The position numbers and the translations under genes are program-made. 50,198 nt of DNA from Candidatus Zambryskibacteria bacterium RIFCSPLOWO2_02_FULL_39_26 (lineage in GTDB: Bacteria; Patescibacteriota; Minisyncoccia; Phycocordibacterales; DATDWN01). The stretch is taken from assembly GCA_001825395.1 (NCBI GenBank), contig MHWN01000019.1:1-50198 (forward strand), in the 5' to 3' direction. Positions 1,777 to 34,736 of the stretch are shown in pieces (within the stretch, counting starts at the first letter, position 1; the number at the start of each line of letters is the position of its first letter). The notes under the pieces were generated by a model that had not been told where the DNA came from, ran no database searches, and worked only from the letters and a program-made list of their open reading frames with translations.

Positions 1777-2088
1777 ACGACTTACTCCCTGTTACCGAAT
1801 TTACCGTGGTCTAGCATACGCTAGCCTTCGGGTATTCCCGGTTCCCTTGAGTTGACGGGCGGTGAGTACAAGACTTGAGAACGTATTCACCGCGGTATAG
1901 CTGACCCGCGATTACTAGCAATTCCAACTTCATGGGGTCGAGTTTCAGCCCCCAATCTGAACTGGGGCGACTTTTATTAAGATTGGCTCAGGGTTACCCC
2001 GTCGCAACTCGTTGTAGTCGCCATTGTATTATGTGTGTAGCCCAAGGTATCAAAGGGACATGCTGACCTGGCGTCATCCTCGCCTTCC

Positions 2089-2237
2089 TCCCAGCTTTTT
2101 GCTAGCAAGCAAAAAGTAGTTTGATAAGTTAAAAAAGTTTAAGAAGTTTTATAAGTTTTTGAATTCTAACTTATTCAACTTTTCTGACTTATTAACTTAT
2201 ACAACTTGCTTTTTGAGCTTACGCTCAAAAAGCTGGG
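2089..2237 (-). repeat. ~150-nt hairpin expansion in 16S helix 40 region
   Basis: CCCAGCTTTTTG...CAAAAAGCTGGG arms enclosing AAGTT/AACTT units in place of a short loop. Confidence 0.8.
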
Positions 2238-2681
2238 CAGTCTCGCCTGATACGTATAACAGACAACGAGGGTTGCGTTCGTTACCCCACTTAAGGGAAC
2301 AATTCAAATCACGAACTGACGACGGCCATGCATCACCTGTCCAACTGTCCTTGTGAGACGGCACACGTTTCTGCGTGCCTTCAGTTGGATTTCTAACCTT
2401 GGTAAGGTTCTTCGTTTATCATCGAATTAAACCACATAATCCACTGCTTGTGCAAGTCCCCGTCTATTCCTTTGAGTTTTAACCTTGCGGTCGTACTACC
2501 CAGGCGCCGAGCTTAACGCGTTAGCTTCGTCTCTCAGAGGGTCGATACTCCGAAAAACCAGCTCGGAAAGTTTAGGGCGTGGACTACTGGGGTATCTACA
2601 TACGTGTTACTTCTTTCGAAGACCACTGTACCCAGTATTACAGATGGATCTCTATGTCGCCATAGAGGTCGGACTATATCA

Positions 2682-3404
2682 TTATCTTAATGTAAACTGT
2701 CGCAACGAATATGTTTCTTTTGGATTATGGTAGGAATCTATCATTTTTTCCAGAAGTTTTTGTTTTTCAATGTTCGGCCAGAATCGTGATGTGTGCGTAA
2801 TATGCACACCATCAATAAATCCGACTTTTTGATAAAACTTTTTCATATTTTCTTTGTCTCTTATTTTTACTTTACCATCCCCTGCATCACAGGCTGTAAT
2901 ACCTAGTGATTGGAGGAGAGTGATATATTCTTTTCTGAGCTTTGGATGAGCACAAGCGAGATAGACTCCACGAATCAGCCATTTAGCTTCATCTTTTTTA
3001 GTCTTTCTCCGTGCTACATACAAACTCACTCCACCATCACAACTAAATGCTGATTGCAAGAATTCTTTTACGACGTTATGTCGAATAAGTTCTTCAATTG
3101 GTAACTTAGTTTTAGGAAGCTCGCCATTTTTATACCGAAGTGTTCGGAATGTTCCAAACTTTTCAGTAAATAATTGACCTGCTTCTTTTGAATCAACGAT
3201 CGCTCGATGGAGTCCGTCAGAAGTCATGTCCAAACGGACACGATTTTCTGGTAATGCAAATTCTTGCATTATAGACTCTTTGAAAATCGAAACAAGTCGC
3301 TGTGATTTATTGGAGAAGTAGAATCGCCAGCTGTTTCTGCCTTTCGGCGACAAACAACCGTCGGTAAAAATAAGTCCAAGTAATGTTGCAGTAGTTTTGT
3401 TCAT
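2682..3404 (-). CDS. double-motif LAGLIDADG homing endonuclease (S788 intron)
   Basis: LLGLIFTDGCL and FLQSAFSCDGGV motifs, located in intron. Confidence 0.85.
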   Translation of the reverse strand: MNKTTATLLGLIFTDGCLSPKGRNSWRFYFSNKSQRLVSIFKESIMQEFALPENRVRLDMTSDGLHRAIVDSKEAGQLFTEKFGTFRTLRYKNGELPKTKLPIEELIRHNVVKEFLQSAFSCDGGVSLYVARRKTKKDEAKWLIRGVYLACAHPKLRKEYITLLQSLGITACDAGDGKVKIRDKENMKKFYQKVGFIDGVHITHTSRFWPNIEKQKLLEKMIDSYHNPKETYSLRQFTLR

Positions 3405-3470
3405 TAAGATATTCGGCGTTTAGTCTCTGAGGGGTCAATCAAGCACTAATTTTTGGAGTCAAGATAATAC

Positions 3471-3499
3471 TTGACAATAATAGTAGTCTATGTTATTCT
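3471..3499 (+). promoter_or_regulatory. promoter TTGACA-17-TGnTATTCT antisense to the 16S transcript
   Basis: Consensus -35, 17-bp spacer, extended -10. Confidence 0.7.
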
Positions 3500-3516
3500 G
3501 TTAGTCGGAGGTGACC

Positions 3517-3636
3517 ATGACAGACACAAAGAATTTTGCCGAGTCCTTGGAAGGAAAGGGTCTCACACCGCAAGAGAAAGCTGTCCTGATGAAACAGGCT
3601 GGACTTCCCTACGATGAGAATTCTCCCAAAAGGTAG
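3517..3636 (+). CDS. 39-aa orphan peptide MTDTKNFAESLEGKGLTPQEKAVLMKQAGLPYDENSPKR, SD-led cassette 2, antisense within S788 intron
   Basis: GGAGGTGA at 3507-3514, ATG 3517, TAG 3634-3636; below ORF-track cutoff and translated by hand. Confidence 0.65.
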   Translation: MTDTKNFAESLEGKGLTPQEKAVLMKQAGLPYDENSPKR

Positions 3637-3705
3637 CCTGGCGGATGCTTTGGAGCGACGTATCGCGCGACTCGCGATTATGAAGCTTTAGGCCAGGCGG
3701 TTCTC

Positions 3706-3745
3706 GAGAGGTTGTGTCGTTCCGACACAACCTCTTATTCTTTTT
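3706..3745 (+). terminator. intrinsic terminator of the intron-embedded cassette
   Basis: AGAGGTTGTGTCG-ttc-CGACACAACCTCT followed by TATTCTTTTT. Confidence 0.7.
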
Positions 3746-4176
3746 CCAAAAATTAGTGCTTGATGACTTCCCTGCTGATTGCCTGCACTCAAAACATTTT
3801 CACTTACTTAATAATTATACTAAATAAGTAGTCTGAGATACACAGGTATTCCAGCATACAGCCAAATTCTCATTCCGACGTCACCGTCGGAAGGGACCAG
3901 ATCGATCCCATTCGCTACCCACGCTTTCGTGTTTCAGTGTCAGGAGTGGCCCAATGAACTGCCTTCGCTTTTGGTGTTCCCCATGATATCAACGGATTTC
4001 ACCCCTACTCCATGAGTTCCATTCATCCCTGCCATCCTCTAGCTGTGCCGTTTCAATCGCACTTCCGAGGTTAAGCCTCGGGTTTTAACAATTGACTAAC
4101 ACTGCCACCTACACACCCTTTACGCCCAATGATTCCGGATAACGCTCGGGGCACTCGTATTACCGCTGCTGCTGGC

Positions 4177-5117
4177 CAATTTATTCTCATATCACTACGA
4201 GGATTGGACTATATCATCATCCATTATTTATTTTAAAAACAAATAATGGAGTTCGGCGTCTGATAGAAAATTTAAAAATCTCTCTATCTCACTGTTTTGG
4301 AAGTTTTTTAGACTTTCTCAAGATCAGTCTCTGAGGGGTCAAGTATAATTTGGGGTAGTTTGTAATCAAAACAGGATAAAATGTATGGCTGTATGGTGGA
4401 AAGAAAAATATCTCTTCCATCTTTGCCAACATATAGTTTTATATATTTCTTGCCTCTGCAAGATGGTGTTTGTATAGAAGTTTTTATTTTAAACTTTTCA
4501 TACAATACTTCTTGCAAAAGTCTTACATCTGATTGGCTGAATGAATCAGTACTAAAGGAAAACGAGTAATGTGATTTGACTCGATAATCCAATGTTCCAT
4601 CATCCATAAACCAAACTGCAAGACTAAGAGAAGAAACTGGTAACTTTTTAATAGTAGCTGGAACTGATTTTGACCCTGATCCATAGAACAAATTTCTAAA
4701 GAAATCTAATTCAACAAGAGATCTCGTGCTGAAATACCATTGCCCATTATCTTTTCTTTGTTTAGGAGGAGTTTTGACTAGATTTTGAAACTCATTATAG
4801 AGCCAGAAAACGTAATCTTTTTTGCGTTCAGACTGTTTTATTTGTAATCTGCTCGCCTTGAAACCATCATGTTCCAAGTATCCATCTCCCAACAAAGTTC
4901 CTACTACTATTTCTTTTTGTCGTTCTGTTAAACTCACTACTTAATTATACCGACTTTCCTGCTGATTGTCTGTCAAGAATCTCTTATGAGACGCAGCTCT
5001 TAACAGATTTCCAGCATATAAGCCGAATTTGCTTAGAACCTTACGATTCTAAGTCGCGCACAGTAATTACGAATTTTTAATGCTACTAAATTGGAAGTGG
5101 AGCTTAATCCACATTTC
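4177..5117 (-). mobile_element. group I intron after 16S U516
   Basis: CTCGT|GCCAGCAGC split, terminal G, core motifs. Confidence 0.92.
4308..4937 (-). CDS. LAGLIDADG_2-type homing endonuclease (S516 intron)
   Basis: VVGTLLGDG and LAVWFMDDG motifs; TATAAT 6 nt before GTG start. Confidence 0.9.
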   Translation of the reverse strand: MSLTERQKEIVVGTLLGDGYLEHDGFKASRLQIKQSERKKDYVFWLYNEFQNLVKTPPKQRKDNGQWYFSTRSLVELDFFRNLFYGSGSKSVPATIKKLPVSSLSLAVWFMDDGTLDYRVKSHYSFSFSTDSFSQSDVRLLQEVLYEKFKIKTSIQTPSCRGKKYIKLYVGKDGRDIFLSTIQPYILSCFDYKLPQIILDPSETDLEKV

Positions 5118-5285
5118 ACGAGTTTAGCAACCCCTTATTCGTGAGGTACTATCAATAAACTTTCTCCCTCATAAAAGATGTTTACGACCCAGAGGGTCTT
5201 CATCCATCACGCGGTGTCGCTCCATCAGACTTTCGTCCATTGTGGAAGATTCTCGACTGCGGCCACCCGTAGGTGTATGGTCCGT

Positions 5286-6019
5286 CATAGTGTTTTCCCC
5301 GATCACTCGGGGTATCAGACTATACCTTCATCCTCGACTAAACTTGTAAATTTAGAGAGGAGCCAACATGTTAGCTTGTACATAGGTCTTCTAACCGGTA
5401 CAAACTCTCTCGCGTCAATTTATAAAATTGTACGAGAAGTCGTTACGGGGTCAAATGATAAAAATTTTCTTTTTCCGCCAGTTTTCGAATTTAGAGATCG
5501 TATTTCTTCAATCTTTTTAAGGATTGAGGAATAATTTTCGTCTGAAATTCGATTTGTCCGGAGGTTATCGCCAAATTGAGATAATATCTCAAGAGCGATA
5601 CTTGCTTGTTTCTTTTTCAAAATAAGATGCGGAAGCATTTTATTGAGAATGCGGCGTACGTCTTTGCGGTCTACAATTACTAACTCCGCTTGATCGTGCG
5701 CCACAGAAACCCGCACTTTTCCCGCATTAAGATATTTTTGCATTTTCTCTAACATATCGATATGTCGAATATGTTGAGTGAAATTAATCCGAATGCGAGG
5801 ACGATATAAACGCTGGTATTGTGGAGACTGTTTCGTCAGTATTGCTACCAAAGAACCGTCTCCATCAAAGAAACCTGCGATATACGCGTCAGAAAACTTT
5901 TTTTCATCGACTTCCCACGGTATTGCCTTCATATACATGTATTATATCATGTCCTCTGAAGGTTCCACCGTTATGAGTTGGATTTTACTTGAGAATCACT
6001 TCTCAAGGAGACAAATTTT
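5286..6019 (-). mobile_element. group I intron after 16S position ~328
   Basis: CTGAGAT|ACGGACC split with exon-terminal U and intron-terminal G. Confidence 0.88.
5420..5938 (-). CDS. single-motif LAGLIDADG homing endonuclease (S328 intron)
   Basis: YIAGFFDGDGS motif and PHLILKKKQA segment typical of the I-CreI-like family. Confidence 0.9.
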   Translation of the reverse strand: MYMKAIPWEVDEKKFSDAYIAGFFDGDGSLVAILTKQSPQYQRLYRPRIRINFTQHIRHIDMLEKMQKYLNAGKVRVSVAHDQAELVIVDRKDVRRILNKMLPHLILKKKQASIALEILSQFGDNLRTNRISDENYSSILKKIEEIRSLNSKTGGKRKFLSFDPVTTSRTIL

Positions 6020-6460
6020 ATCTCAGTACCATCGGTGGGGGCCAAGCTCTCACTCCCCCTAAGCGTCATTGCCTTGGTAGGCCATTACCCTACCAACTAG
6101 CTGATACTCCGCAGGCCATTCTTTTAGCGCAACTGTAATAAAACAGCGCTTTACTCCGAAGAGACTATCAAGTATTACCCAATCTTTCGACTAGTTATTC
6201 CTGACTAAAAGGGATGTGCCCACGTGTTACTACCTCGTTCGCCACTGCTCTTGCGAGCCGTTTGACTTGCATGCCTTATCCACACCGCCAGCGTTCATCC
6301 TGAGCTAGGATCAAACTCTTAAAATAATTTCTGTGAAATTATTTTATCCGACCCATGAGACGAAGTCTCGTCTGGGTTTAGGATAAGCCCTAAACGCTTT
6401 CGCGTCGGGCAAAATTTGATTCACAAATTTTGAACGGAACAAAATAAAGAAGAATATAAT

Positions 6461-11898: not shown

Positions 11899-12897
11899 CT
11901 ACTTGTGGGAGTAAGTCATGACTTCGTCCACAATTCCCCTGGAAGTCTGACGGCACCCAATGGTCACCATCTGTTTCCCAGAGAATCTGGACCTAGTCAA
12001 TATCCCACTACTTGCATCACTTAGAGGCCACGTCGTTCCAGGCTTCCAAGTGAGCATGAGTTTGATGTTTTCCACCTCGTTAGCCGAATACTCCCAAGGC
12101 GGAGTGGCTCGGAGGTTCAGAAGACCCGGGGCGTTATGGTGAGACAACCCGAATACATGGCCAAACTCATGACCAACAACAAGATCATAAAGCTGGCTAC
12201 GGGAAAAGGCAATGCCTCCACCCACGATCCGATAGTTGATGATGTCCCAAGTCACAATCGCGTCGAAACCTTTATCTTCGATGGTCTGATCTATCCGCAG
12301 TGGAAAGACAGCCGTGCCGGGAACAGCCGAGGTACTGGCATAAACCTGAAAGCCGATTTGGTTTTGGAGCTTTTGAGCCCAAGTGTATATGAGAGAAGCA
12401 CTGTTGGGCCACTCTTCAATAAACCTCTGCTCGAGCACAATTGAAACCGGGCCATCAAGACGATATAGCGGGTGAAGGCCTGGATTGAAATCGGCTCCGA
12501 TATCTCCAAAAACCGCCTGCCTGACTGTCAGCTCACTATTGCCTGCCGCATGCAGACAATAGATGAGCAAATTGGTCAGTGCAGTTCTTTGCGCCGTCAC
12601 GAAAGGCAAGCAACTCTCGGCAGTTACGGTGATTTGGAAACCACCGGTTGTCGAGCGAATGATCACCTTGCCAGATTCGTCAGTTTGAAACTGACCGAAA
12701 CTGGTTGAGAGCGTTGCTCCGGAAATCGGCTGATTCGACCCGCGTTCCAGCACCCAAAAGGTGTATTCCGCCTCAGCCGGCGGAGTAACTGTTGGAGTTG
12801 GAAGTGGAGAAGGGCTGGTCTGGGTCTCATCACAGGCGGACGAGAAAAAAGCCATGGCCAGAACGACCATGACTGCGAAAAACTTACTGCGCGTCAT
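11899..12897 (-). CDS. lipoprotein with metzincin Zn-protease motif, SD-led cassette 3
   Basis: Lipobox-like SSAC, HEFGHVFGLSH (HExxHxxGxxH), AAGGAGG SD, terminator hairpin ~11845-11886. Confidence 0.85.
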   Translation of the reverse strand: MTRSKFFAVMVVLAMAFFSSACDETQTSPSPLPTPTVTPPAEAEYTFWVLERGSNQPISGATLSTSFGQFQTDESGKVIIRSTTGGFQITVTAESCLPFVTAQRTALTNLLIYCLHAAGNSELTVRQAVFGDIGADFNPGLHPLYRLDGPVSIVLEQRFIEEWPNSASLIYTWAQKLQNQIGFQVYASTSAVPGTAVFPLRIDQTIEDKGFDAIVTWDIINYRIVGGGIAFSRSQLYDLVVGHEFGHVFGLSHHNAPGLLNLRATPPWEYSANEVENIKLMLTWKPGTTWPLSDASSGILTRSRFSGKQMVTIGCRQTSRGIVDEVMTYSHK

Positions 12898-13055: not shown

Positions 13056-13102
13056 TTTCCCTCCCATTCCCCTAGGCGACGCCTAGGGGAATGGGAGGGA
13101 AA
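13056..13102. repeat. REP-like perfect palindrome flanking RAYT
   Basis: TTTCCCTCCCATTCCCCTAGGCG-A-CGCCTAGGGGAATGGGAGGGAAA. Confidence 0.9.
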
Positions 13103-13110
13103 AATAAATA

Positions 13111-13797
13111 TTATTTATTAAAGGTCACCCAATCAAAAATCTCTTTATCGAAAATTTCTTTGTCTAAAAAATATTGTGGAAAAACCTTTAGATTTAAAAT
13201 CCTGCCTCTTAATCTTTTGATTTTCCTAAAATCTAAATAACTGCTCCACTCATATTTATTTAAAAATTCAATGCTTTTTTTAACATTTCGTATCTCCTTT
13301 TCTTTCCATAAAGGATCTATTAATTTTAAAGGGTTTAGATGTATATATGAAAAAATGTATTTTGATTGAACATCATTTTTTGTATGAACTGCTTTAAATG
13401 GACCTTCAAAAAGTTTTCCTGTTCTTTTATATTTTTTATTAAAGTACATTGAATATGATGTGCAAAGTTTTTGAACGAACACGCTGATTGAATTCGTCTC
13501 CTCTCCTAGGTCCCCTAGGCGACGCCTAGGGGAAATGTATAGATGAAAATGATTGGGCATTAAAACCCATGCTCCGATTGAAACAAGTTCTTCCCCTCTA
13601 TTGAAATCGAAGGCATCAATTTTTTTACCAACAATATCATCCCTAAAATTTATACTTTTTTCTGAATTGCACAAATATAATAATTTTGTAAATCTGTCTC
13701 TATCTAGATCATCGGTAAAAATATTTTGCTTGCTGTTCCCACGATTATAAATATGGTAATACTCCCCTTCAACTAAAGCTTCTTTTCTATATGTCAT
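13111..13797 (-). CDS. REP-associated tyrosine (Y1/HUH) transposase, RAYT-like
   Basis: YYHIYNRG, LMPNHFHL (HUH), YIHLNP (catalytic Tyr), YEWSSY motifs. Confidence 0.9.
   Translation of the reverse strand: MTYRKEALVEGEYYHIYNRGNSKQNIFTDDLDRDRFTKLLYLCNSEKSINFRDDIVGKKIDAFDFNRGEELVSIGAWVLMPNHFHLYISPRRRLGDLGEETNSISVFVQKLCTSYSMYFNKKYKRTGKLFEGPFKAVHTKNDVQSKYIFSYIHLNPLKLIDPLWKEKEIRNVKKSIEFLNKYEWSSYLDFRKIKRLRGRILNLKVFPQYFLDKEIFDKEIFDWVTFNK
13511..13533. repeat. REP palindrome in frame inside RAYT
   Basis: TCCCCTAGGCGACGCCTAGGGGA, encodes SPRRRLGD. Confidence 0.9.
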
Positions 13798-13819
13798 ACG
13801 TAAGATTATATCATACCTA

Positions 13820-13840
13820 CCCCTAGGCGTCGCCTAGGGG
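13820..13840. repeat. REP palindrome upstream of RAYT (inverted copy)
   Basis: CCCCTAGGCGTCGCCTAGGGG. Confidence 0.9.
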
Positions 13841-19069: not shown

Positions 19070-19282
19070 ATGATGGCTGGTTATATCACCAGACTTTGGT
19101 ACAAAGACGGTACTCTTGATCGAGTTGAGGTACAGGTCGGTAGGGGGTACGAGAAATTCTGGAGCAATACCGTGAGATTCAGAAATACGGATCCACTGGC
19201 GGTCACAAGGGTGGGACATGGCAGTTATGTAGAGGTCCATCGTTTTTGGTTTTTTGGATCACTCATAACTGTCCTGAACTAG
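19070..19282 (+). CDS. 70-aa orphan protein, SD-led cassette 4
   Basis: TTGACA-16-TAGCCT (19025-19052), GAGGTG SD, terminator AAGGCGCGACA-tttc-TGTCGCGCCTT-TT (19305-19336). Confidence 0.65.
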   Translation: MMAGYITRLWYKDGTLDRVEVQVGRGYEKFWSNTVRFRNTDPLAVTRVGHGSYVEVHRFWFFGSLITVLN

Positions 19283-19354
19283 CTCTGAAAAAACCCAACA
19301 AACAAGGCGCGACATTTCTGTCGCGCCTTTTGATTTGTCTAAAATCGAATCACC

Positions 19355-19798
19355 TGTTCTGGCGCCTACCTATCCCAGTAGTAGATGCTTCGCATCACTA
19401 CGGGACATGCTTTCCCACGAGTGAGTACTTGCCCCGTAGCGAGCTTCGCTCTGCTACTAGGGTCATCGGCACTATTGGGCTTAACCCCAGTAGTAGAAAT
19501 TTGAAAAGTTAAATAATTTGTTCTGGCGGCTAGCTACTTTCCCCGTGAGAGTATCATCGCCTCAACCGAGCTTAACTTCCGTGTTCGGAATGAGAACGGG
19601 TGTGACCTCGGCGATAAGCCACCAAAACAAATTATTCAACTTTATTTACTTTTCAAATTTCACTACAGGGCATGCTTCCGTGTCGGAATGCCTGGCCCGT
19701 ACCGAGCTATGCTCTGGTACTGGGCAGAACAGGTGCCTGTCCCGTAGTCAGCTTTGCTGTACTACTGGGATGACCACCACGTTAAATCACCAACACAA
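19355..19798 (-). pseudogene. second divergent 5S rRNA gene fragmented into six pieces by five palindromic insertions
   Basis: Pieces 19355-19372, 19410-19427, 19463-19484, 19675-19690, 19726-19735, 19771-19798 join into a sequence colinear with the intact 5S. Confidence 0.85.
19521..19627 (-). rRNA. rrf: 5S rRNA (intact), nested inside insertion 19485-19674
   Basis: CACACCCGTTCTCATTCCGAACACGGAAGTTAAG core, paired ends TTTGGTGGC/GCCGCCAGA. Confidence 0.95.
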
Positions 19799-20308
19799 AG
19801 AATTCAATCTATTTTGTATATTGTATCTAATTGTAAAAGTAACGTTCATGGCTGTATTATGATAATTAAAAATAAATTTTTAATTGTATTCATTCCATGT
19901 AACAGGATAAAGCTCACCCACGAATAATACAAACAGATACTAATCTTTCGAATAAATTTAGTAATTCATTCGTTAAAATTCGTACATTCGTAGATTGGTG
20001 GGCTGGTTCTCAAATTTCCTAATAGAAATCGGCTAATTAGTACACCTCGGCTCAACACATTACTGTGCTTACACCTAGTGCCTATCACGTAATAATCTCT
20101 TACGGGCCTCAAACGATTCCTAATCTTGAAGTTGGCTTCATGCTTAGATGCTTTCAGCATTTATCCATTCCCGACTTAGCTACTCTGCGGTGCCCTTGGC
20201 AGGACAGCAGACACACCAGAGGTCAGTTCATCCCGGTCCTCTCGTACTAGGGACAAATCTTCTCAAGAATCAACGCCTACAGTAGATAGGAGACCAACCT
20301 GTCTCACG

Positions 20309-20918
20309 CATGTTCCCACAAATTACTTTGTGCATTGGACTATAACTTGATCAAGTCCAAAGTCTGTAAAGTCGTAAAGTCTTTAAAGGAAATTCCTTTA
20401 GGGACTTTATGGACTTTTAACTTTCGACTCAACTGTTGATGTTTAGTCTCTACGGGCACTTATGAAGTTGAGAGAAGGAGCGAAGAAAAATCTTCGCTGA
20501 AGGAGTGTGGGCCGAAAGGAGACTCCGGCCAATCAAGACAATCAAGCTTGAACCAGCGCGAAGCTTACAATCCAAGCGCCTAGTCACTTTCTAGTATTAT
20601 CAAGTCCAGAAATGCACTCCCGACTCCACACATCCTTCTCTCAACTTCATAAACTTCCCTCGGTATTACCCACACATATGGGTTCCACCGATATAAATCA
20701 ACTTTAACCCCTCCCTCCTCGTACGAGGAGGGAGGGAACCGCCGTGATTTGATTGATCTCGCCCTGCGAAGCTCGTAATCGAGCGAAGTAGGGGCTCTAT
20801 CTTTTATTTGCAGAAATAAATTTCTGCAATTTTAAAACGAACTATATTATTTTTTGCCTCTGAGGATTCAGATTGTGGAGGAATCATTATATATCTTGCG
20901 ATATGATATGAATCCTCC
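20309..20918 (-). ncRNA. ORF-less group I intron after 23S U2593
   Basis: TCAGACCGT|CGTGAGAC split, terminal G, guide TCACG-GCGGTT near 20737-20747. Confidence 0.85.
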
Positions 20919-20927
20919 ACGGTCTGA

Positions 20928-21806
20928 CATGCCTTCCATTATTACTAATGGTACTGACTATACTTTTTCCAGGTTTTCCACTTCTAGAACTGACGTGTTA
21001 GCACCCGCCTCTTCGGCGAGCACTCTGTCTATCTTACTAGACAAGTCGATACGGGGATTATCAATCTTATAGTTCATTACTTCTGGAATAAACGGAGTAA
21101 CAATTGAAATAAAACGAGTATAATCGTTTCTCCCAATTGCAATTTTCCATTGATTTCTATCTTTCACAATTGTTGGATGTAGATGATACTTTTCCTTCAG
21201 AAAATCTGCAATTACTTTTTGATCTTCAAAAGAAAACGAATGTGTGTTCAAGGTGATGTCGCCACCATTATTTGAACCGTCATCCATATACCACACTGCC
21301 AACATTTGATCCGAAAAAATCGGTAGTATTTCTGTTGGGAACTTCTTCACTCCATTTTTATAAAAAATTTCGTGAATTATTCCAAAGTTTTTTAGACTTT
21401 TTGTGTGAAAGTACCAAGATACTTCTTTTAGATTTCGTTTCTTGTTTAGCCAAGAAATCTCCCTTGGTTCTTTAGAAACTAAATCTTTTAACATCTTATA
21501 CTTCCACCAGACATACTCTTTTTGTTTATCACCATGATGCACTCGAAGGCGAGCAGTGTAACTAGCTCGTATTCCTTTCGATCGACACTCAAGCCGTACA
21601 TCGCCAAGCAATGACCCTATAATCACATCTAATTGATGTGATGGAAATGCAGATTGTAATCTTCCCACGATATTATCCATTACCTATATTTTACCACCAT
21701 AAGTGATAAAAATGTGCAACCGGACTTCACCGTTATGAGTCAGTTTATTTTTATTTATTTCTTATTTATTCTCGTAAATTGTCTTAAGCTGGGCTCATGA
21801 ATCCTT
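20928..21806 (-). mobile_element. group I intron after 23S U2584
   Basis: GCTGGGT|TCAGACCGT split, guide TGA-GCCCAGC, terminal G. Confidence 0.88.
20958..21680 (-). CDS. LAGLIDADG_2-type homing endonuclease (L2584 intron)
   Basis: IIGSLLGDV (G->V variant) and LAVWYMDDG motifs. Confidence 0.88.
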   Translation of the reverse strand: MDNIVGRLQSAFPSHQLDVIIGSLLGDVRLECRSKGIRASYTARLRVHHGDKQKEYVWWKYKMLKDLVSKEPREISWLNKKRNLKEVSWYFHTKSLKNFGIIHEIFYKNGVKKFPTEILPIFSDQMLAVWYMDDGSNNGGDITLNTHSFSFEDQKVIADFLKEKYHLHPTIVKDRNQWKIAIGRNDYTRFISIVTPFIPEVMNYKIDNPRIDLSSKIDRVLAEEAGANTSVLEVENLEKV

Positions 21807-21890
21807 ACCCAGCTCGCGTATCTTTTTAAATGGCGAACAGCCATACCCTTGGGAGCTTCTTCACCCCCAGGCTAAGATGAGCCGACATCG

Positions 21891-22120
21891 CTGTCGTATT
21901 TTTCTCCCATTACTGAGAGGATCGGACTATATCTTCATCCTAATTTGAAATTAGGAGATTGGCGTGTAGTCTCTACGGGTTCCCAAATATAATTTAATAT
22001 ATGAGCCTTCCCACGGTATTGTCCATGGCTAATGGAGTTCACCGTTATAGCCAATTTATTTTTGTATCGCATTACTGCGATAGGCACCCCGATGTTGCTC
22101 AATTTTTACATTGAACGTTA
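21891..22120 (-). ncRNA. compact ORF-less group I intron (230 nt) after 23S U2500
   Basis: GGCACCT|CGATGTCGG split, guide CATCG-GGGTGCC, terminal G. Confidence 0.9.
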
Positions 22121-22306
22121 AGGTGCCGAACTGCACCGTCGCTATGGACGCTTAGGTGCAACCAGCCTGTTCATTTCTGTTTTGTAACAGGTGTGTGGCT
22201 GGTGAATAGACTATATCATCATCCCTCTGCTCACGAGCGGAGGGAGACGGCGTGTTAGCGTAAACCTGTGTTCGAAGCAGGAATACACTCTGATCACAGA
22301 AAGTGA

Positions 22307-22915
22307 TCAAGTCGTTACAGGGTCAAAGAGTTTATATTGTAATGATTCAATAATGAATGGGTAGATTAAAGATTGGAATTTTTTAGTCTCTCTTGCTCCA
22401 AAAAATAACGCGAAACCTTTATTTTTCTTATCATAGATTTTGGTAGCAATGTCAAAATTTTTCTCAATAGTTTTTTGTAATATTTCTGATTCAGTACGCG
22501 TTATGCGACCGAGATAAATAAAACTATTTCTGTTTATTTTGTCATAGTAACCATCATCCATATACCAAACAGCAAGTGTTATTGGATGGATTAAAAAATT
22601 TCCAATATCAGTTGGGATAATTTTCTTTCCATTGGGATAGAAATACTTTCGCCATTTTCCAAAGCTGGGTGATGCACTCGACTGCCATCGGCAATACGAG
22701 TACGTTGCCTTAGTTTTGGGATGTATTCTTTCGAGGTAACTTGGTGTTCCTTGAAATAATCTGCCGAAAATTTTTCCTTTCCACAAAACATAATCTTTTT
22801 GTTTATCACTATGTTCCAGTCTTAGTCTGGCATTCTTCTCTCCGGTTTTTTGTAAAAAACCATCACCGAGAACTGTACCGACCAAGACATTTGTTTGTTG
22901 TTTAGTTAATTCCAT
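22307..22915 (-). CDS. LAGLIDADG_2-type homing endonuclease (L2449 intron)
   Basis: LVGTVLGDG and LAVWYMDDG motifs. Confidence 0.9.
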   Translation of the reverse strand: MELTKQQTNVLVGTVLGDGFLQKTGEKNARLRLEHSDKQKDYVLWKGKIFGRLFQGTPSYLERIHPKTKATYSYCRWQSSASPSFGKWRKYFYPNGKKIIPTDIGNFLIHPITLAVWYMDDGYYDKINRNSFIYLGRITRTESEILQKTIEKNFDIATKIYDKKNKGFALFFGARETKKFQSLIYPFIIESLQYKLFDPVTT

Positions 22916-23084
22916 TGCATCAATTATACATTACATTTTTTCTCTCGACTTCCCACGGGATTGCGCACTCTAGAACTCCTAAAACTTTTTTACAAAAGTT
23001 CGGAGAGACCTGTGCGTGTCAACCGTTATAAGCCGTTTATACCCCGACCTAGATCGTCGGGACACAGGAGTAACACAAAATTAT

Positions 23085-23190
23085 TTGAGTCATGATTTTT
23101 TATAGTATCTGCGGAACCTGTGAAAAGGTGAGCAGAAAGAAAATTTTCACCAGAAAATTATTCTGTTACTAGAAAAAATTATGACGAAAA
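23085..23190. repeat. ~106-bp inverted-repeat element also present after recA (46346-46451, inverted)
   Basis: Colinear match including GAAAGAAAATTTTCA.CAGAAAATTATTCTGTTACTAGAAAAA. Confidence 0.88.
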
Positions 23191-23463
23191 ACAATTCCAT
23201 GTATCCTATTTCTCCGCAAATTACTTCGCGGGAGGACAACAAGACTCTTCTAAACAAATCTATAAATAGATCTATCGCAGAGTCCATCCCCGGGGTAGCT
23301 TTTATCCGATAATCTCCGGCCGCCTCTAACACGGACCGTCGGTTCACTATGTTCTGCTTTCGCATCTGTTTGGCATGTACGCCTTACAGTTAAGCCAGCT
23401 TGTGCCATTACACTATCGCCATGGTTTCCATTCACGGCTAGCTGACCTTAATAAACTCCTCCG

Positions 23464-24099
23464 TTACTCTTTAGGCATTTTGTTCCCTAATTTATATCTA
23501 AGAGATGGAATAATATATGGACTTACAATATTCCTAAACTTTTCAGCTGATTCTGAAATAATATAAAGTCTTAAGTATTTTTGTTTTTGAACATGAAGTT
23601 TTGTTTCAATGTCAAATTTTTTACTTAAAACATTTTGTATTCTTTTAAGCTCATCTCTTTTATATCCAAGTGTATGAATAATATAGGTATTGTGTTTTTT
23701 GGACTTCAATGACCCATCATCCATAAACCAAATCGCTAAGCTCAATGGTGTAAGTAATTCGTGAATAGAATTTGGAATTATTTTCTTTTTTCTACTGTAG
23801 AATTGCTCACCATAAAATTTTAGTAATTCATGTGAATATGTAGAGAAATGATAACTGAATGGTTTATTGTTTTTTAGTCTTATCTTAGGAGTCATTCGCA
23901 CCCAATTATGTAATTCCTTATGTAACCAGTCTAAATATTCTTTTTGAATGACAGAATGTTCAATCTTTAGTTTATAAGTTTTTCCATTATTTTGAGTTTC
24001 CAAATGACCATCGCCAAGCGTAAGACCAACAATAATATCTCTCTGTTTTGAGGTGAGTTCTAGATTCTTTTTGTAATCTTCTATCTCTTTTGACCTCAT
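23464..24099 (-). CDS. LAGLIDADG_2-type homing endonuclease (L2262 intron), stop codon in 3' exon
   Basis: IVGLTLGDG and LAIWFMDDG motifs; last codons CCT AAA GAG TAA are 23S exon sequence. Confidence 0.9.
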   Translation of the reverse strand: MRSKEIEDYKKNLELTSKQRDIIVGLTLGDGHLETQNNGKTYKLKIEHSVIQKEYLDWLHKELHNWVRMTPKIRLKNNKPFSYHFSTYSHELLKFYGEQFYSRKKKIIPNSIHELLTPLSLAIWFMDDGSLKSKKHNTYIIHTLGYKRDELKRIQNVLSKKFDIETKLHVQKQKYLRLYIISESAEKFRNIVSPYIIPSLRYKLGNKMPKE

Positions 24100-24552
24100 T
24101 TTATTTTAATTAGGTTGATACAACTTAATGTATCTACTTTGTGTCACCACAAAGATCGGACTATATCTTCATCCTTTTTACTGGATGGCTGACATTTAGT
24201 CTCTACGGGTATTTATGAATTAGAAGATGAGTGGGTCCGACCGTACGTTCGGACCCAGATGAATTAAGAGCCAAAACTCTGCAATTTTCGTACTACTACG
24301 AGCCCTAAGTCTCGCACCACGCCGCCTGATGCAGTGGTTTGCAGAATATTGTTCCAATTGCTGGACTCTTTACTCATCTTCTAATTCACAAACTTCCCTC
24401 GGTGTAATCTTAATTATATCAAGATTTCCACCGATATAGTCAACTTTTCTCATACCGTTTTCACGATATGGTCCCCCTTATTTCTTTTTTTCGGTATGAA
24501 CCACCTAGGAGGCGCCACGGATTGAAGAAACGAAATTACTTTCGCGTCCTCA
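23476..24552 (-). mobile_element. group I intron after 23S U2262
   Basis: GGGGCGCTATCCT|CCTAAAGAGTAACGG split, terminal G. Confidence 0.88.
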
Positions 24553-24853
24553 AGGATAGCGCCCCACTAAAACTGCCCACCAGAAACTGTCTCTCGTCGT
24601 TTTTGCCGCCGAGGTTAGAAATTACATCAAACAAAATGGCTATTTCACTGTCGAGTAGATTCCATCCGAAAACGAAACCGTCAAACCTCTGACCACTATG
24701 CTACGTATGTCAAACGTAATCTCAATATCAAGTTGCAGTAAAGCTCCCGGGGTCTTTTCGTCTAACTGCAGGTAACCGGCATCTTCACCGGTATTGTATT
24801 TTCACCGAGCAAATCCCCGAGACAGTTCTCCAGTCATTATACCATTCGTGCAC

Positions 24854-24891
<38 letters not shown>

Positions 24892-25704
24892 CAATATTAT
24901 ACTTTCATATAACCTTATGGACTATATCTTATCAGTTTTAATATTCTGATTTTGGCGTGTAGTCTCTGAGGATTTTCTAAGAGTGTCGAATTGTTCTGAT
25001 AATGTTTCAGAAATATATTCTTTTGAATATTTTCTGTTTTTACCTTGAGCATTCATAGTAAATGCTATGTCTACAATTCGTTTGAACCCTCCAATAGTTA
25101 AATGCTCCTTTTTCATAATCCTATCTATAATATCGGTGAATTTCTCAAAATCTTGTGTTTTCGTCGCTAAACGATATTTTCTGAAAAACGGAATTATTTT
25201 TTCTTGAAGAGTCTTGTGATTTTCAACCGTGTACGTCATCACATTATATGGTGACGTCTTGCGGTGTATTCTTCCAGTTTTAAAGACATGATCTTTAAGA
25301 AGGAGAAGCACATCTACATTGTTTTCATGTTGATAAACTTGAAAACAAGGATTTAATATCCATTTCCATCCTTGGCCCGTGCCATCTGAATAGACGTAAT
25401 ATTTTTGTTTTGTCATCGCGACACTGAAACTAGACTCACCATCTACAAATCCAGCCATGAAATAGTTTAAATATTTTCCAGGTAGTTTTGATAGACGGTC
25501 ATAATATTCTTTATGTTTTTCTTTTTTCATTGTGTTAGATGACACTCTTAGAATCTTTCCTGCTGATTGTTCGCGTCGGCTTTTGGATTTTTACCGTCAA
25601 GGTACCAAAAGTTCATTGCGAGTTTTCCAGCATTTGGCCAAATTTTAGAACGGCCCTTTTTGTTTCCCGGCACTTTCTTAGAAAGTGCTGGGCGTAGCAA
25701 AATT
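24892..25704 (-). mobile_element. group I intron after 23S U1923
   Basis: AACGGT|CCTAAGGTAGC split, terminal G. Confidence 0.9.
24922..25545 (-). CDS. single-motif LAGLIDADG homing endonuclease (L1923 intron, I-CeuI-like position)
   Basis: FMAGFVDGESSF, FQVYQH, KIIPFF motifs. Confidence 0.9.
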   Translation of the reverse strand: MSSNTMKKEKHKEYYDRLSKLPGKYLNYFMAGFVDGESSFSVAMTKQKYYVYSDGTGQGWKWILNPCFQVYQHENNVDVLLLLKDHVFKTGRIHRKTSPYNVMTYTVENHKTLQEKIIPFFRKYRLATKTQDFEKFTDIIDRIMKKEHLTIGGFKRIVDIAFTMNAQGKNRKYSKEYISETLSEQFDTLRKSSETTRQNQNIKTDKI

Positions 25705-25710
25705 ACCGTT

Positions 25711-26005
25711 CATTTTGTGTAGTTTTTTGTATAATGATGCACAACTTTATTTTATCATCAAAAACTTTCTATTGTTAACTCATTGTCGCCAATGAGATCG
25801 GACTATATCATCTCCTCGATTTCTCTCGGAGTTCTGCGTATAGTCTCTGAGGGTTTCCTTCGATTTCTCTCAGGATCTTCCCTGCTGATTGTCCGCGCTG
25901 AACAGATTTTCACTACTTGGTGGTTAAACCGCCAAGTGAGTACTGTTAGATTCTCGGATTTTCCAGCATATAGCAGAATTTTTTGTAACTACAACAGTCC
26001 AGTCT
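25711..26005 (-). ncRNA. ORF-less group I intron after 23S U1917
   Basis: GTAACTAT|AACGGT split, terminal G, AATCAGCAGG and CAGAGACTA core. Confidence 0.9.
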
Positions 26006-26180
26006 ATAGTTACGGCCGACATTCACCAGGGCTTATATAGTCAGCCTACAATCTTGCGATTTTCAGTTACCATATTTGACCTTCTGGCATTGGTCAGGCA
26101 TCACCCCCTATACATCCTCTTGCGAGTTCGCAGGGAGCTGTGTTTTTGATAAACAGTTGCCAGAGAGACTTTTGTTGCAA

Positions 26181-26337
26181 CCTCGCACGCAGCGCGAGGA
26201 AATCCAAATTACAAAATCCAAATGACAAATCAATTACAAAATCCAAATGACAAAGTTTTTAATTTTGAAATTTAAATTTTGAATTTGATTGGAAATTTGA
26301 AATTTGAGCTTTGAAATTCCTTGTGCTACGCACAAGG
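26181..26337 (-). repeat. AT-rich hairpin insertion in 23S (H63 region)
   Basis: GC-clamped stem enclosing a tandem ATTACAAAATCCAAATGACAAA repeat. Confidence 0.75.
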
Positions 26338-26871
26338 TAAGCCTTATTCCGAAGTTACGGCTGCTTTTTTGCCGAGTTCCTTGGGGATCTCTCACTCGTT
26401 CGCCTTACTCTACTCGAGCTGACTACCTGTGTCGGTTTACGGTACGGATTTCTGCGTGTTATGCTTAGAAAATTTTCTTGGAAGCGTGCTTTGTTGAATC
26501 CCTTTTGACGTATCGCCAGGTTTAAATGTTAATTGGTATTCTCAATTAAGAGCTCGTGCGGATTTTCCTACACGACTACCTTCTAACATTTACTCAAATC
26601 CAATAATGAGCTCAACATACTACACTCCGTCATTCCATCGCACACACAGAAAGTTCGGGAATATTAACCCGATGTCCATCGGCTGCGGATCTCTCCATTG
26701 CCTTAGGCCCGACTAACCCTGCTCTGATTGACATTGAACAGGAAACCTTAGTCTTTCGGCGTGAAGGGTTCTCACCTTCATTGTGGTTACTTGTGCCAAC
26801 ATTCTTACTTCACAACGCTCCAGCGTGGGTCACCCCTTCACCTTCACAGCAGATGCGAATACTCTCCTACC

Positions 26872-27063
26872 GCTCCGCTCGCATCTCGCTACACTCGATG
26901 CTTGCTAAATTTAAAATTGAAAAATCAAAGTGTAAAATGACAATGCAAAATTAAAAATTTTAATTCTCGAAATTCCTTAATTTTACATTTTTAACTGTCA
27001 TTTTGATTTTTGATATTTACATTTTACATTTAGTTCGCCTCGAACACAGTGAGATGCGAACGA
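26872..27063 (-). repeat. IVS-like hairpin in 23S helix 45 (palindrome family B)
   Basis: AAAATCAAAGTGTAAAATGACAATGCAAAATTAAAAATTTT, identical to the H9/H10 copy. Confidence 0.82.
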
Positions 27064-27697
27064 AACCCTCAGTTTCGGTACTATGTTTAACCCCGATTAT
27101 TTGCGGCGCGGATTCTCTTACTGAGTGAGCTGTTACGCTATCTTTAAAGGATGGCTGCTTCTAAGCCAACCTCCTCAGTGTTTGAGAAAATCCACCACCT
27201 TAAGTGTACTTAACATAGATTTAGGGACCTTAAATAGAGATCTAGGCTGTTTCCTTTTTGACGTGTGGAGCTTAGCCCCCACCGTCTAACTGCCGTATAT
27301 TTAATCTTCCGTATTCGGAGTTTGATAGGTCTCACGAGATTGCTCCCTGTTGAGACCTTCCAGTGCTCTACCCCGGAAGGATACGTACGACGCTAGCCCA
27401 AAAGCTATTTCGGAGAGAACCAGCTATTACCAGGCTCGATTAGCTTTTCACTTCTTATCACAAGTCATCCGGTAGTATTGCACGGCTAAACGGTTCGGGC
27501 CTCCCAAGGGATTTCTCCCTTGTTCACCCTGCTCATGACAAGCTCGCTCTGGCTTCGGGTCTGTACCACACGATACTATAAATAAATATAGAAGCGCGCT
27601 ATTCACACTCGGTTTCCCTGTGACTCCACCCCGATGAAGGGCTTAGTCGAACCGCGTAGTACAACTCGTTGGCTCATTCTTCAATAGGCACGCCATG

Positions 27698-27833
27698 ACG
27701 GCGCCTCACTTCGTTCGCCACCTAAATTCAAAATGAAAATATCAAAATGAAAAATTAAATTCTGAGAATTTTCATTTTACACTTTGATTTCTTATTTTTA
27801 CATTTAAGCGGTGTCGAACGCAGTGAGACGCCG
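27698..27833 (-). repeat. IVS-like hairpin in 23S helix 25 (family B-like)
   Basis: GGCG.CTCACT..GTTCG/CGAAC..AGTGAGACGCC clamp around AT-rich arms. Confidence 0.78.
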
Positions 27834-27890
27834 CGCTGACTCCTTGTAAGCATATGGTTTCAGATCTATTTCACTGTCCTAATCGGACTT

Positions 27891-27927
<37 letters not shown>

Positions 27928-28139
27928 ATCTCAAAATGTATTTAGCCTTACCGGTTAGTACCGGCAAATTCCTCCGAGCTATTCATGTCTCGAAGTACTC
28001 AAGAACAGAAACAAAGAAGATATTATATTTTCACTTACGGGACCATTACCCTCTAGGGTCGCGCTTTCCAGCGCGTTCAGTTAACATAATATTTTTTAAC
28101 TCCTCTCATAATAAATTATGACGTTTCTGCCTTACAACC

Positions 28140-28283
28140 CCACGCAACTAACCGAAGTTCGTTGCAAGTCTATAAAGTCAAAAGTTTATAAAGTCCTTAA
28201 AGTGGGATGCAAATGCATTTCACTTTATAACTTTACAGACTTTAAGGACTTTCGACTCGCATCTTACCTCAGTAAGGTGCGTG
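28140..28283 (-). repeat. hairpin insertion in 23S H16-H18 region (family A)
   Basis: TATAAAGTC.../GACTTT units inside a CCACGCA/TGCGTGG clamp. Confidence 0.78.
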
Positions 28284-28400
28284 GTTTGGGCTTTTGCGTT
28301 TTCGCTCGCCGCTACTTGCGCAATTCTTATTAGTCTTTTTTCCTCCAGGTACTGAAATGTTTTACTTCCCTGGGTGTACTCTGTACATAATCTGCACAGT

Positions 28401-28573
28401 TCCAACACCTCACACAAGATTGATGTTCAAAATCAAAATTTAAAAATCAAAGTGTAAAATGACAATGCAAAATTAAAAATTTTTAATTCTATAATTTTAC
28501 ATTTTCAACTGTCATTTTTATTTTTGATATTTACATTTTACATTTCAAGCATCTCACCTCTGTGAGATGTTGG
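28401..28573 (-). repeat. IVS-like hairpin in 23S H9/H10 region (family B)
   Basis: TCCAACA.CTCACA/TGTGAGATGTTGGA clamp; core nearly identical to the H45 insertion. Confidence 0.82.
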
Positions 28574-28763
28574 AGGGTTTCCCCATTCAGAGATTTCCGG
28601 ATCGCAGGTTGCTAGGCACCTCCCCGAAACTTATCGCAGCCATGCTACGTCTTTCATCGCCATTTTGAGTCAAGGCATCCACCATACGCTCTTAAATTTC
28701 CCATTAGGAAATTTAAAAACCACATGACTGCAAAATATCACCACTGATACTTTGTAATCATTT

Positions 28764-28795
28764 ACCCCAGTAGTAGAGCAAGGCTCACTACAGGG
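28764..28795. repeat. CCCAGTAGTAG...CACTACRGGG palindromic element in 23S leader
   Basis: CCCCAGTAGTAGAGCAAGGCTCACTACAGGG, same family as the 5S insertions. Confidence 0.8.
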
Positions 28796-32885: not shown

Positions 32886-32975
32886 TAGTTATAAAGTTCT
32901 TAAAGTCAAAAGTCTATAAAGGCAGGGTTCTGCTTTACTTTATGGACTTTAGAGACTTGATAGACTTTCGACTAA
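32886..32975. repeat. palindrome family A in rplJ 5' leader
   Basis: TATAAAGT...ACTTTATGGACTTT...GACTTTCGACTA. Confidence 0.8.
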
Positions 32976-33019
32976 TAATCCGACCTAAGGTTAAAATTGA
33001 GTTCTTCACTTTAGATGAA

Positions 33020-34595: not shown

Positions 34596-34736
34596 CCCAG
34601 TAGTAGAAAATTAATTTATAATATATATCTTTATTACTTTATATAGTAACTAATTCTTCATATTTGTTCAAATCTGATATATGTAATTTTCACTACGGGA
34701 TAGCCCTGTAGTGAGCTCTGCTCTACTACTGGGACA
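34595..34736. repeat. two CCCAGTAGTAG/CACTACGGGA palindromic elements, the first enclosing ~80 bp of AT-rich DNA
   Basis: TCCCAGTAGTAGAAAATTA...TAATTTTCACTACGGGA and GCCCTGTAGTGAGCTCTGCTCTACTACTGGGA. Confidence 0.82.

Follow-up and report, generated by a model that had tools for sequence, protein, structure and literature searches.

The stretch of DNA considered here (50,198 nt; hereafter the window) is contig C19 in the genome of Candidatus Zambryskibacteria bacterium RIFCSPLOWO2_02_FULL_39_26, an assembly of 611,437 bp in 28 contigs that is 92.63% complete and 0.1% contaminated, and its subject is the 5S ribosomal RNA (rRNA) locus at 19355-19798. This source genome is called G000 below; other G numbers stand for relatives, C numbers for contigs, L numbers for loci or contigs fetched for comparison, and X numbers for sequencing runs. 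The DNA runs that contain the locus sequence are groundwater and soil metagenomes. The sole 5S match in the 611-kb genome lies at 19521-19626 on the minus strand, scores 78.2 bits against the full Rfam model RF00001 (positions 1-120; gathering score 38), and with its 106 nt fits the class of 105-110-nt 5S rRNAs known mainly from Parcubacteria (PMC9297842). This intact gene lies inside the remains of another 5S gene. The original prediction, made from the letters of the window, described an old 5S gene broken by five palindromic inserts, the third of which, 190 bp long, carries the intact gene, and this nested arrangement is confirmed. The inserts resemble repetitive extragenic palindromic (REP) elements, and the third is bounded by two partial REP-like sequences, referred to here as heads. 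From the 5' end of the outer copy to its 3' end, the locus is made up as follows, the basis of most assignments being given in brackets.

19771-19798, minus strand: outer 5S piece 1, with the 5' end and the 5' strands of helices I and II (colinear alignment; type-B signature in comparison with relatives)
19736-19770, minus strand: insert 5, a 35-bp REP-like hairpin between RF00001 positions 25 and 26, its tail (CCTG on the plus strand) facing the arm tip
19726-19735, minus strand: outer 5S piece 2, the 5' strand of helix III (alignment)
19691-19725, minus strand: insert 4, a 35-bp REP-like hairpin of the GTAC variant, in hairpin loop C (alignment, family alignment, fold of the single-stranded DNA)
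19675-19690, minus strand: outer 5S piece 3, loop C and the 3' strand of helix III, with a 1-nt deletion in the CCGAAC loop (alignment)
19485-19674, minus strand: insert 3, 190 bp, with REP-like heads at 19485-19496 and 19660-19674, the 5S precursor stalk and the intact 5S
19521-19626, minus strand: the inner, intact type-A 5S (RF00001)
19463-19484, minus strand: outer 5S piece 4, the 3' strand of helix II and the 5' strand of helix V and loop E (alignment)
19428-19462, minus strand: insert 2, a 35-bp REP-like hairpin in the 5' strand of loop E (alignment, fold)
19410-19427, minus strand: outer 5S piece 5, helix IV and loop D (alignment)
19373-19409, minus strand: insert 1, a 37-bp REP-like hairpin in the 3' strand of the loop E region (alignment, fold)
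19355-19372, minus strand: outer 5S piece 6, the 3' strands of helices V and I (alignment)
19304-19329, minus strand: terminator-like hairpin directly after the outer 5S 3' end, closing the 23S-5S unit

When the five inserts are cut out by script, pieces of 18, 18, 22, 16, 10 and 28 nt join into 112 nt that are colinear with the intact 5S from end to end. The two copies agree in 93 of 115 alignment columns, with a 1-nt gap in loop C and another in helix IV. The insertions are exact, zero bases being doubled or lost over the ten junctions, and insert 3 alone can be slid along its site, by 1 nt. The lack of target duplication that had been noted for these inserts thus holds at every junction, and their ends match the earlier description, including its two orientations (inserts 1 and 3 one way; inserts 2, 4 and 5 the other). 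The outer copy is a real, colinear and decayed 5S gene at the native end of the rRNA operon; because the terminator-like hairpin follows directly on its 3' end, it can be placed in the native last slot of the 23S-5S unit.

Two types of 5S gene, A and B, are found in the genus, distinguished from each other by compensatory changes in helices II and V. A 5S match is present in 26 of the 40 relatives drawn; among the 15 same-genus relatives with a match, eight have type A (...TTGAGGCGATG...GTAGCTAG...) and seven have type B (...TAGTGCCGATG...GTAGGTAG...), in a comparison that uses the rows of intact genes, since outer halves with inserts are misaligned in MAFFT. In G000 the inner copy is type A and the outer copy type B. 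The latter assignment holds at all three diagnostic blocks examined (the helix II 5' strand, the helix II 3' strand with helix V, and the 3' GGTAG block), so that the suggestion of a chimera of two older 5S genes can be discarded. Piece 4 is identical in 20 of its 22 nt to the homologous old piece of a relative, G018.

Manual threading of the outer copy, on its alignments to the inner 5S and to the RF00001 structure line, keeps 11 of 13 pairs in helix I and four of four in helix III and leaves helices IV and V formable; helix II, in which the original prediction had seen poor pairing, retains about three of its five to six pairs. One nucleotide is missing from the conserved CCGAAC of loop C. 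The minimum-energy fold of the outer copy, at -30.5 kcal/mol, is not 5S-shaped, whereas the inner copy folds into the canonical Y at -40.3 kcal/mol. A cmscan search in situ, with the inserts left in (19340-19500 and 19660-19815), gave no 5S at E<=10, a result that is uninformative on the excised copy. From its sequence we read the outer copy as a fairly young pseudogene that looks dead. If the outer 5S were instead still a gene, its inserts would have to be removed from the RNA in the manner of introns or intervening sequences (IVS), with the pieces joined or held together. The inserts are self-contained hairpins in loop regions, outer helices I, III, IV and V could form, and excised insertions are abundant in the rRNA genes of the Candidate Phyla Radiation (CPR; PMC11270868). 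The same two intervals, however, hold no intron or ribozyme match in Rfam at E<=10, the one match being a chance snoRNA (E 3.5); helix II is broken, loop C carries its deletion, two inserts split loop E, and the removal of insert 3 would leave two halves, 54 and 58 nt long. In relatives, the homologous old copies are either truncated or broken further. To our knowledge no splicing mechanism exists for such hairpins, and continued function of the outer copy seems highly improbable.

The reads support the locus as assembled. In two runs from two other studies, zero-mismatch unitigs cover the whole of 19250-19900 evenly, at a depth of about 50-67 (X3) and 100-125 (X5). At least seven of the ten junctions in X3 and at least six of ten in X5 are spanned by one unitig that extends 31 nt or more to either side; among the unitigs listed, the shorter side of the other junctions measures 11-30 nt, because unitig graphs branch within repeats. 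The junction of old piece, left head and inner 5S recurs in the independently assembled G018, with 93.5% identity over 77 nt, and in three metagenome contigs that are mutually identical. This is a short-read metagenome assembly, unitigs break in repeats, and three of the ten X3 junctions have fewer than 31 nt on one side; a chimera of the 5S genes and repeats of two strains, produced in assembly or binning, was therefore weighed. Mismatch-free, even-depth tiling in two other studies and homologous nests in the independent assemblies G002, G018, G023 and G052 and in four metagenome contigs make such an artefact very unlikely indeed. A joint in X5 that leads from 19372 to about 19550 with 14 letters between was considered as an empty allele and proved to be the plain type-B 5S of another, G018-like organism.

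As had been proposed, the five inserts form one REP-like family, and it has members elsewhere in the genome and the genus. A search pattern for paired heads matches 12 places in G000, four of them within the 5S locus, and the family in this genome consists of about 13 short hairpins (29-37 bp) and at least five long forms. In an alignment of 14 short copies (13 from G000 and one from G023), 96.4% of cells are paired and four pairs show compensatory change (8 cells), a covariation that was reached by 0 of 500 shuffles. Folded as single-stranded DNA, the four short 5S inserts and two other copies are more stable than shuffled sequences (z -3.1 to -6.1). GTAG follows the CCC foot in 12 of the 14 copies and GTAC in two, insert 4 among them; its position is 3 nt inside the element rather than at the extreme end. 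The family is thus, as REPs are, a short (20-40 bp) imperfect palindrome repeated in the genome, and it forms inverted doublets of the kind known as REPINs (REP doublets forming hairpins), which have 4-5-nt spacers and lie at 34596-34733, C28:10929-10973, C6:4236-4334, C25:~44250-44294 and C21:~11980-12061. The heads of the long forms act as inverted termini, as in miniature inverted-repeat transposable elements (MITEs), but the 5S inserts, unlike MITEs, are without target duplication. Long forms other than the 5S carrier have the same heads around unrelated cargo of 65-124 bp. Members of the family outside the 5S locus include the following, the first two being in the window.

28766-28795: short member, about 75 nt upstream of the 23S 5' end
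34596-34733: doublet of a 104-bp long form (34596-34699), a 4-nt spacer and a 30-bp short form (34704-34733)
C8:48032-48155: long form, 124 bp
C21:11997-12061: long form, 65 bp
C6:about 4270-4334: long form, 65 bp

Across the genus, a strict pattern for the common form matches 14 of 41 genomes, with 1-11 matches each (overlapping and both-strand matches included) and none for the reversed control, and the hairpin stem is nearly invariant across these 14 genomes; the arms of the long form are present in 13 of the 41. A long form some 125 bp in length, AT-rich in content and with CCAGTAGT(A)GAAAATGACAT as its arms, is found both in G000 (C8:48032-48155) and in G005 (C1:79725-79851), as well as in G042, G016, G046, G047, G023 and G056, and could be a MITE-like unit or a stalked small RNA. 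One short copy, C6:145-173, sits in apparent coding sequence between two AGCGAAG words, and the copies at C22:3561-3589 and C22:~6345-6375, which are about 2.8 kb from each other, belong to a repeated stretch and have the same flanks.

Within the old 5S, the inserts follow the fold of the gene. On the RF00001 structure line of the inner gene, carried over to the outer copy by colinearity, all five lie in the regions of loops B, C and E, and zero in helices I, II and IV. Inserts 5 (between positions 25 and 26) and 3 (between 52 and 53) sit on opposite strands, both of them between the same two stacked base pairs of the small helix in the loop B region, insert 4 lies between positions 35 and 36 in hairpin loop C, insert 2 follows position 74 in the 5' strand of loop E, and insert 1 splits the two pairs of a 2-bp helix in the 3' strand of loop E. 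The hairpins are asymmetric, with a 4-5-nt tail (CNTG-N) on one side only, and in all five cases this tail faces the tip of the arm. Orientation tracks the strand, the three inserts in 5' strands lying one way and the two in 3' strands the other, a rule that would arise by chance with a probability of 1/16; both elements in L076, a metagenome contig, follow the same tail-to-tip rule. Positions that are neighbours only in the fold, together with orientations that follow the fold, point to a single-stranded target that is read by its structure. In number, too, the inserts stand out: five of the about 20 family members lie within 444 of 611,437 bp, against about 0.015 expected if they were spread evenly. 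The original prediction had regarded the dead gene as a safe landing site, which alone fails to explain such a concentration, and some targeting is needed. The only one of these sites to recur is that of insert 3 (in G002, G018 and L076).

Insert 3 itself retains the outer 12 and 11 nt of the REP consensus, the apical GC-NNN-GC being swapped for a stalk of about 35 bp and the 5S. The stalk motif AATTTGAAAA is the ordinary 5S precursor stalk of the genus and is also present at un-nested genes (G005 and G009), which identifies the carrier as a fusion of REP heads with a stalked 5S. Head, stalk and 5S are found together in three of the 41 genus genomes, namely G000, G002 and G018. The earlier claim that a REP-like element captured a 5S gene does not follow from the existence of a headed 5S cassette, since a stalked 5S may instead have entered the apex of a REP. 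In such a two-step history, which would not depend on the heads, a short REP would first have come to lie in loop B of one of two 5S copies, or of a dead copy, and a stalked 5S would then have landed in, or replaced, its apical 4 bp and loop, whether through hairpin-into-loop insertion of the same sort or through recombination with foreign DNA. The mobile unit would be the stalked 5S, and the heads bystanders. This would account for the replacement of the apical part of the REP alone, and it fits the stalk at the un-nested G005 5S and the stalked 5S genes without these heads that lie in or beside old copies in G023, G009, G048, G015, G052, G017 and G008. The copy at C22:3561 sits in the loop of a larger imperfect palindrome, and other REPs within palindromes are described in PMC3733652, which also documents REPs inside genes and cleavage by REP-associated tyrosine transposases (RAYTs) at GTAG. 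On the other hand, a REP that entered the sole 5S would do harm until a rescue copy came, three species have head, stalk and 5S as one unit, and the long forms with other cargo show that heads can bound a unit. We know of no mechanism that moves a bare stalked rRNA gene, and consider the two-step history rather unlikely.

Comparison with relatives shows that the nesting is not unique to G000 but recurs in congeners and in metagenome contigs. In G002 the nest is complete: an old type-B 5S contains a headed cassette whose site and orientation are precisely those seen in G000, with an inner gene of type B, and two copies of a structured repeat, called E here, take the place of the short REPs. What G018 and three metagenome contigs retain is the 3' part of the old gene with an E, together with the left head, the stalk and the final 21 nt of a type-A inner gene, which match those of G000 exactly; upstream of these is a third 5S, intact, of type B and on a different stalk. 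The nest of G023 is in loop C and has degenerate heads and at least three other inserts, and G052 has three levels of nesting. In seven further genomes (G005, G024, G017, G048, G015, G009 and G008) an intact stalked 5S is followed by a 5'-truncated old copy, which usually holds an antisense E in helix IV. The metagenome contig L076, from another organism, has a short REP, nearly identical to insert 5, that occupies the insert 3 site in the same orientation; 9 nt further on, in loop C, is the left head of a REP-headed 5S cassette, and the spacer holds a long-form REP. At L076:1290-1330, a 29-nt GC-rich hairpin of another kind lies in the 3' strand of the old helix I, and dead 5S copies seem to collect hairpins of several families.

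The 5S 3'-end motif is found in 30 of the 41 genomes, and in ten of these it is present two or three times on a single contig within 1 kb; with G000, G002 and G009, whose old ends miss the exact motif, remains of an old 5S are present in at least 13 of 41. Twelve remnant loci were inspected by eye, L073 (G013) being left out. In G000, G008, G013, G018 and G052 the old copy differs in type from the new one, and the point at which new cassette meets old gene varies, with at least five positions seen. A neighbouring protein gene has only 64-71% DNA identity between these species, and the spacers are unalignable, so the recognisable old copies must be much younger than the species or else under constraint. 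Similar fossils in related species suggest that the essential 5S gene has repeatedly been replaced by insertion, and recurrent insertion events are the reading that we favour.

Constraint would be expected if the outer halves and hairpins were a functional precursor scaffold, selected for the processing or protection of the inner 5S, in which the heads would be a recognition stem for an RNase or another protein and outer helices I and II would extend the stalk. The whole locus does fold strongly (-199.7 kcal/mol vs -139 +/- 7.3 for shuffled sequences; z -8.3), with outer helix I closing the structure; hairpins with heads are also found in the spacer between 23S and 5S (G023 and L076) and, in G000, a short way upstream of the 23S. 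The outer pieces are still recognisable despite the divergence of neighbouring genes and spacers, and the hairpin consensus is nearly invariant over 14 genomes. A selected scaffold sits poorly, however, with the variation between species in the positions of the junctions, in the kind of insert (REP or E) and in the presence of the outer 5' half, with the single 3' end in 20 of the 30 genomes that have the motif, with the damage to the outer copies at conserved 5S positions, and with the short hairpins that also lie between protein genes. We regard it as distinctly unlikely.

The E repeat is about 85 nt long and consists of TTACAGG..CTGTACACCTTTC, a variable hairpin, TCAAGGTCTTGCGAAGT, a second hairpin and ACTTCTCACYC. 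Its core pattern is found in 39 of the 41 genus genomes, with 1-19 matches each and nine in G000, and the element has no Rfam match at E<=1. E lies within the dead 5S of at least eight congeners, in sense in loop B and in antisense in helix IV; the 5S locus of G000 is not among its sites, which are given here with those at relatives' loci.

G000: C11:23719-23759; C17:7809-7849; C25:14751-14789 and 44592-44630; C3:388-421; C6:8491-8524; C22:6559-6599; C8:2697-2730 and 32962-33014
Relatives' loci: L008:400-520 and 730-850; L006:1360-1470 and 1660-1770

In G005 and G024 (L018:1650-1980 and L003:1650-1975), about 370 nt lie between the intact 5S and a truncated second copy; the interval in G024 has an open reading frame (ORF) of about 95 codons, followed by an E fused to 5S position ~27, and the 5S 3' flank is duplicated with it.

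The original prediction attributed the insertions to HUH/Y1 transposases. Enzymes of this kind act on a single-strand fold and leave no duplication. Genes with the Y1_Tnp domain (PF01797) are present at six places in G000. One is an IS200-like TnpA of 143 aa (NF033573, 114 bits), and five are RAYT-like proteins of 216-265 aa with HxH and YxxxN motifs, four of which match NF047646 ('REP-associated tyrosine transposase') at 28-38 bits, below its cut-off of 80; the fifth, on C12, has no NCBIfam match. The RAYT-like genes, with their own hairpins, lie at the following places.

13056-13840 of the window
C28:2024-2723
C12:1745-2699
C9:2333-3473
C5:19058-19817

Each of these genes is flanked or overlapped by its own, different hairpin family with other copies in the genome, an arrangement like that of a REPtron. 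The gene in the window (13111-13797) has CCCCTAGGCG-N-CGCCTAGGGG hairpins at 13056-13102, 13511-13533 and 13820-13840, of which that at 13511-13533 falls inside the RAYT-like ORF itself. Five RAYT-like genes are a striking load of REP systems for a genome of 0.61 Mb.

The reading that we favour, with a probability of roughly 0.55, is that a headed cassette with a type-A 5S inserted into and replaced the type-B gene, that the short hairpins came later, and that both steps were structure-directed in the manner of HUH/Y1 transposition. On this account the resident type-B 5S, at the native 3' end of the 23S-5S unit, would have been inactivated by a hairpin cassette that entered precisely between the two stacked pairs of the loop B region. 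The cassette would have consisted of a type-A 5S and its precursor stalk of about 35 bp, the base of which was capped by the two heads of a GTAG-type REP-like palindrome, and the inner gene would thereby have become the cell's only 5S. Four short members of the family (35-37 bp) would later have entered the regions of loops B, C and E of the dead copy, again precisely and without duplication. Folded, single-stranded hairpin DNA would in each case have gone into unpaired or weakly paired spots of a folded 5S strand, with an enzyme of HUH/Y1 type (RAYT- or IS200-like) probably acting in trans. An old 5S that is heavily transcribed, strongly folding and dispensable may be a preferred as well as a tolerated target.

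Several observations weigh against this account. None of the six Y1 genes of G000 is flanked by the 5S-locus hairpin family, which accordingly has no REPtron of its own; the IS200-like gene has unrelated hairpins at its ends, and none of 16 Y1 matches in G005, G044, G016, G046 and G018 lies near a family copy. The part of the original claim that concerned the presence of Y1/HUH genes thus stands, while their link to this family was not found in G000 or the five congeners, and the mobilising enzyme is something we infer; a cognate gene could lie in the missing ~7% of the genome. There is no conserved target word beside the inserts, whose 5' flanks end in GTA, ATG, GTG, AAG and AAG. About 20 copies is a low number for a REP family, and G002 has the headed cassette with zero other copies of the family. 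A loose pattern for single heads is barely enriched (49 matches vs 32 in shuffles) and was not used as evidence, paired heads alone being informative. Many congeners have swapped their 5S by means of stalked cassettes that lack these heads. Turnover of the 5S can therefore proceed without the heads, which may have been added later or may serve as a processing signal. Strains with an empty site were sought in the metagenomes with a 35-nt strain-specific flank, which gave 0 matches in a collection from which near-identical records may be missing. Two RNA runs, X17 and X16, cover the conserved core at 19522-19607 only and are mostly mismatched (5S of other organisms), and are silent on which 5S copy is expressed. 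Overall, the interpretation given in the original prediction is partly supported. A tentative extension, on which the odds are clearly less good than even, is that a 5S with its stalk, sometimes capped by REP heads, is a mobile, self-replacing and non-autonomous hairpin cassette, which by inserting into a loop would kill the resident 5S, supply the substitute and swap types A and B between lineages.

The other rRNA genes of the window are also in pieces. The 23S, at 20029-28691 on the minus strand, has three group I introns and the 16S, at 1728-6326, one, as identified with Rfam; the 16S lies 13 kb downstream of the 5S on the same strand, so the rRNA genes are unlinked and in an unusual order. 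Both the 16S and the 23S (1476-6326 and 20029-28691) hold further large insertions, with internal ORFs of 170-240 aa. Intron-rich rRNA genes might suggest a chloroplast, an origin that was rejected because the genome proved to be that of a prokaryote, 0.61 Mb in size and 92.6% complete.

Among known systems, the nearest parallel is with the GTAG-type REP/REPIN-RAYT systems of E. coli and Pseudomonas, in which imperfect palindromes of about 30 bp likewise have GTAG by the stem foot and conserved bulges, occur as singletons and inverted doublets, cause no target duplication and share the genome with RAYT-like Y1 genes. Unlike those systems, the present one has no RAYT flanked by the family, only about 20 copies, members inside an RNA gene, and long forms that carry cargo between their heads, once a complete 5S rRNA gene; its host belongs to the Patescibacteria, which are absent from a list of phyla given in PMC3733652. 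The insertions are exact and free of target-site duplication at all five junction pairs. Elements of the IS200/IS605 group and their palindrome-associated derivatives have ends defined by hairpins, make no target duplication and pass through a single-stranded DNA intermediate, and such an intermediate would explain the fold-following placement and orientation seen here. In contrast to those elements, there is no fixed 5' target word of 4-5 nt and no tnpA or tnpB between the ends.

In CPR bacteria the genes for rRNA are known for being crowded with insertions (group I and II introns, ORFs for homing endonucleases, IVS of RNase III type), and the organisms are of the same kind. The present case differs in its dead host gene and in its inserts, which are DNA repeats rather than introns and include a 5S gene. 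In a survey of 645 CPR 5S genes, no insertion of 100 bp or more was reported for any of them (PMC11270868). Because Infernal reports the inner gene only, nests like that of G000 would escape standard annotation. In the way it works, and in that alone, the system also resembles the homing of introns and inteins: a selfish insert enters a conserved essential gene and the cell stays viable, and the same site is used again, between GGAAG and UUAAGC in G000, G002 and G018, with a short REP there in L076. It differs in that viability depends on a replacement gene rather than on splicing, no endonuclease is encoded, and other junction positions are used in the genus. A literature search at the level of abstracts brought up no paper that describes a 5S inside another 5S, or a REP-like element with an rRNA gene as its cargo.

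Genes for rRNA are counted among the least mobile of all and among those most often inherited vertically. If the proposed account is true, insertion can replace an essential RNA gene that exists in a single copy, and can do so repeatedly and across types in genomes of only 0.6 Mb, and REP-like hairpins can bound cargo up to the size of a functional gene. The fold-following sites and orientations would then be a testable prediction for target choice by systems of the REP/RAYT type. Should the stalked 5S prove to be a mobile cassette, the stacks of up to three nested or serial 5S fossils would be what it leaves behind, an essential rRNA gene would be the cargo of a selfish element homing into its own paralogue, and the same structure-directed, single-strand process would also place the REP and E repeats. 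Typing based on the 5S or the rRNA operon, and pseudogene calls, should in any case expect such fossils in Patescibacteria.

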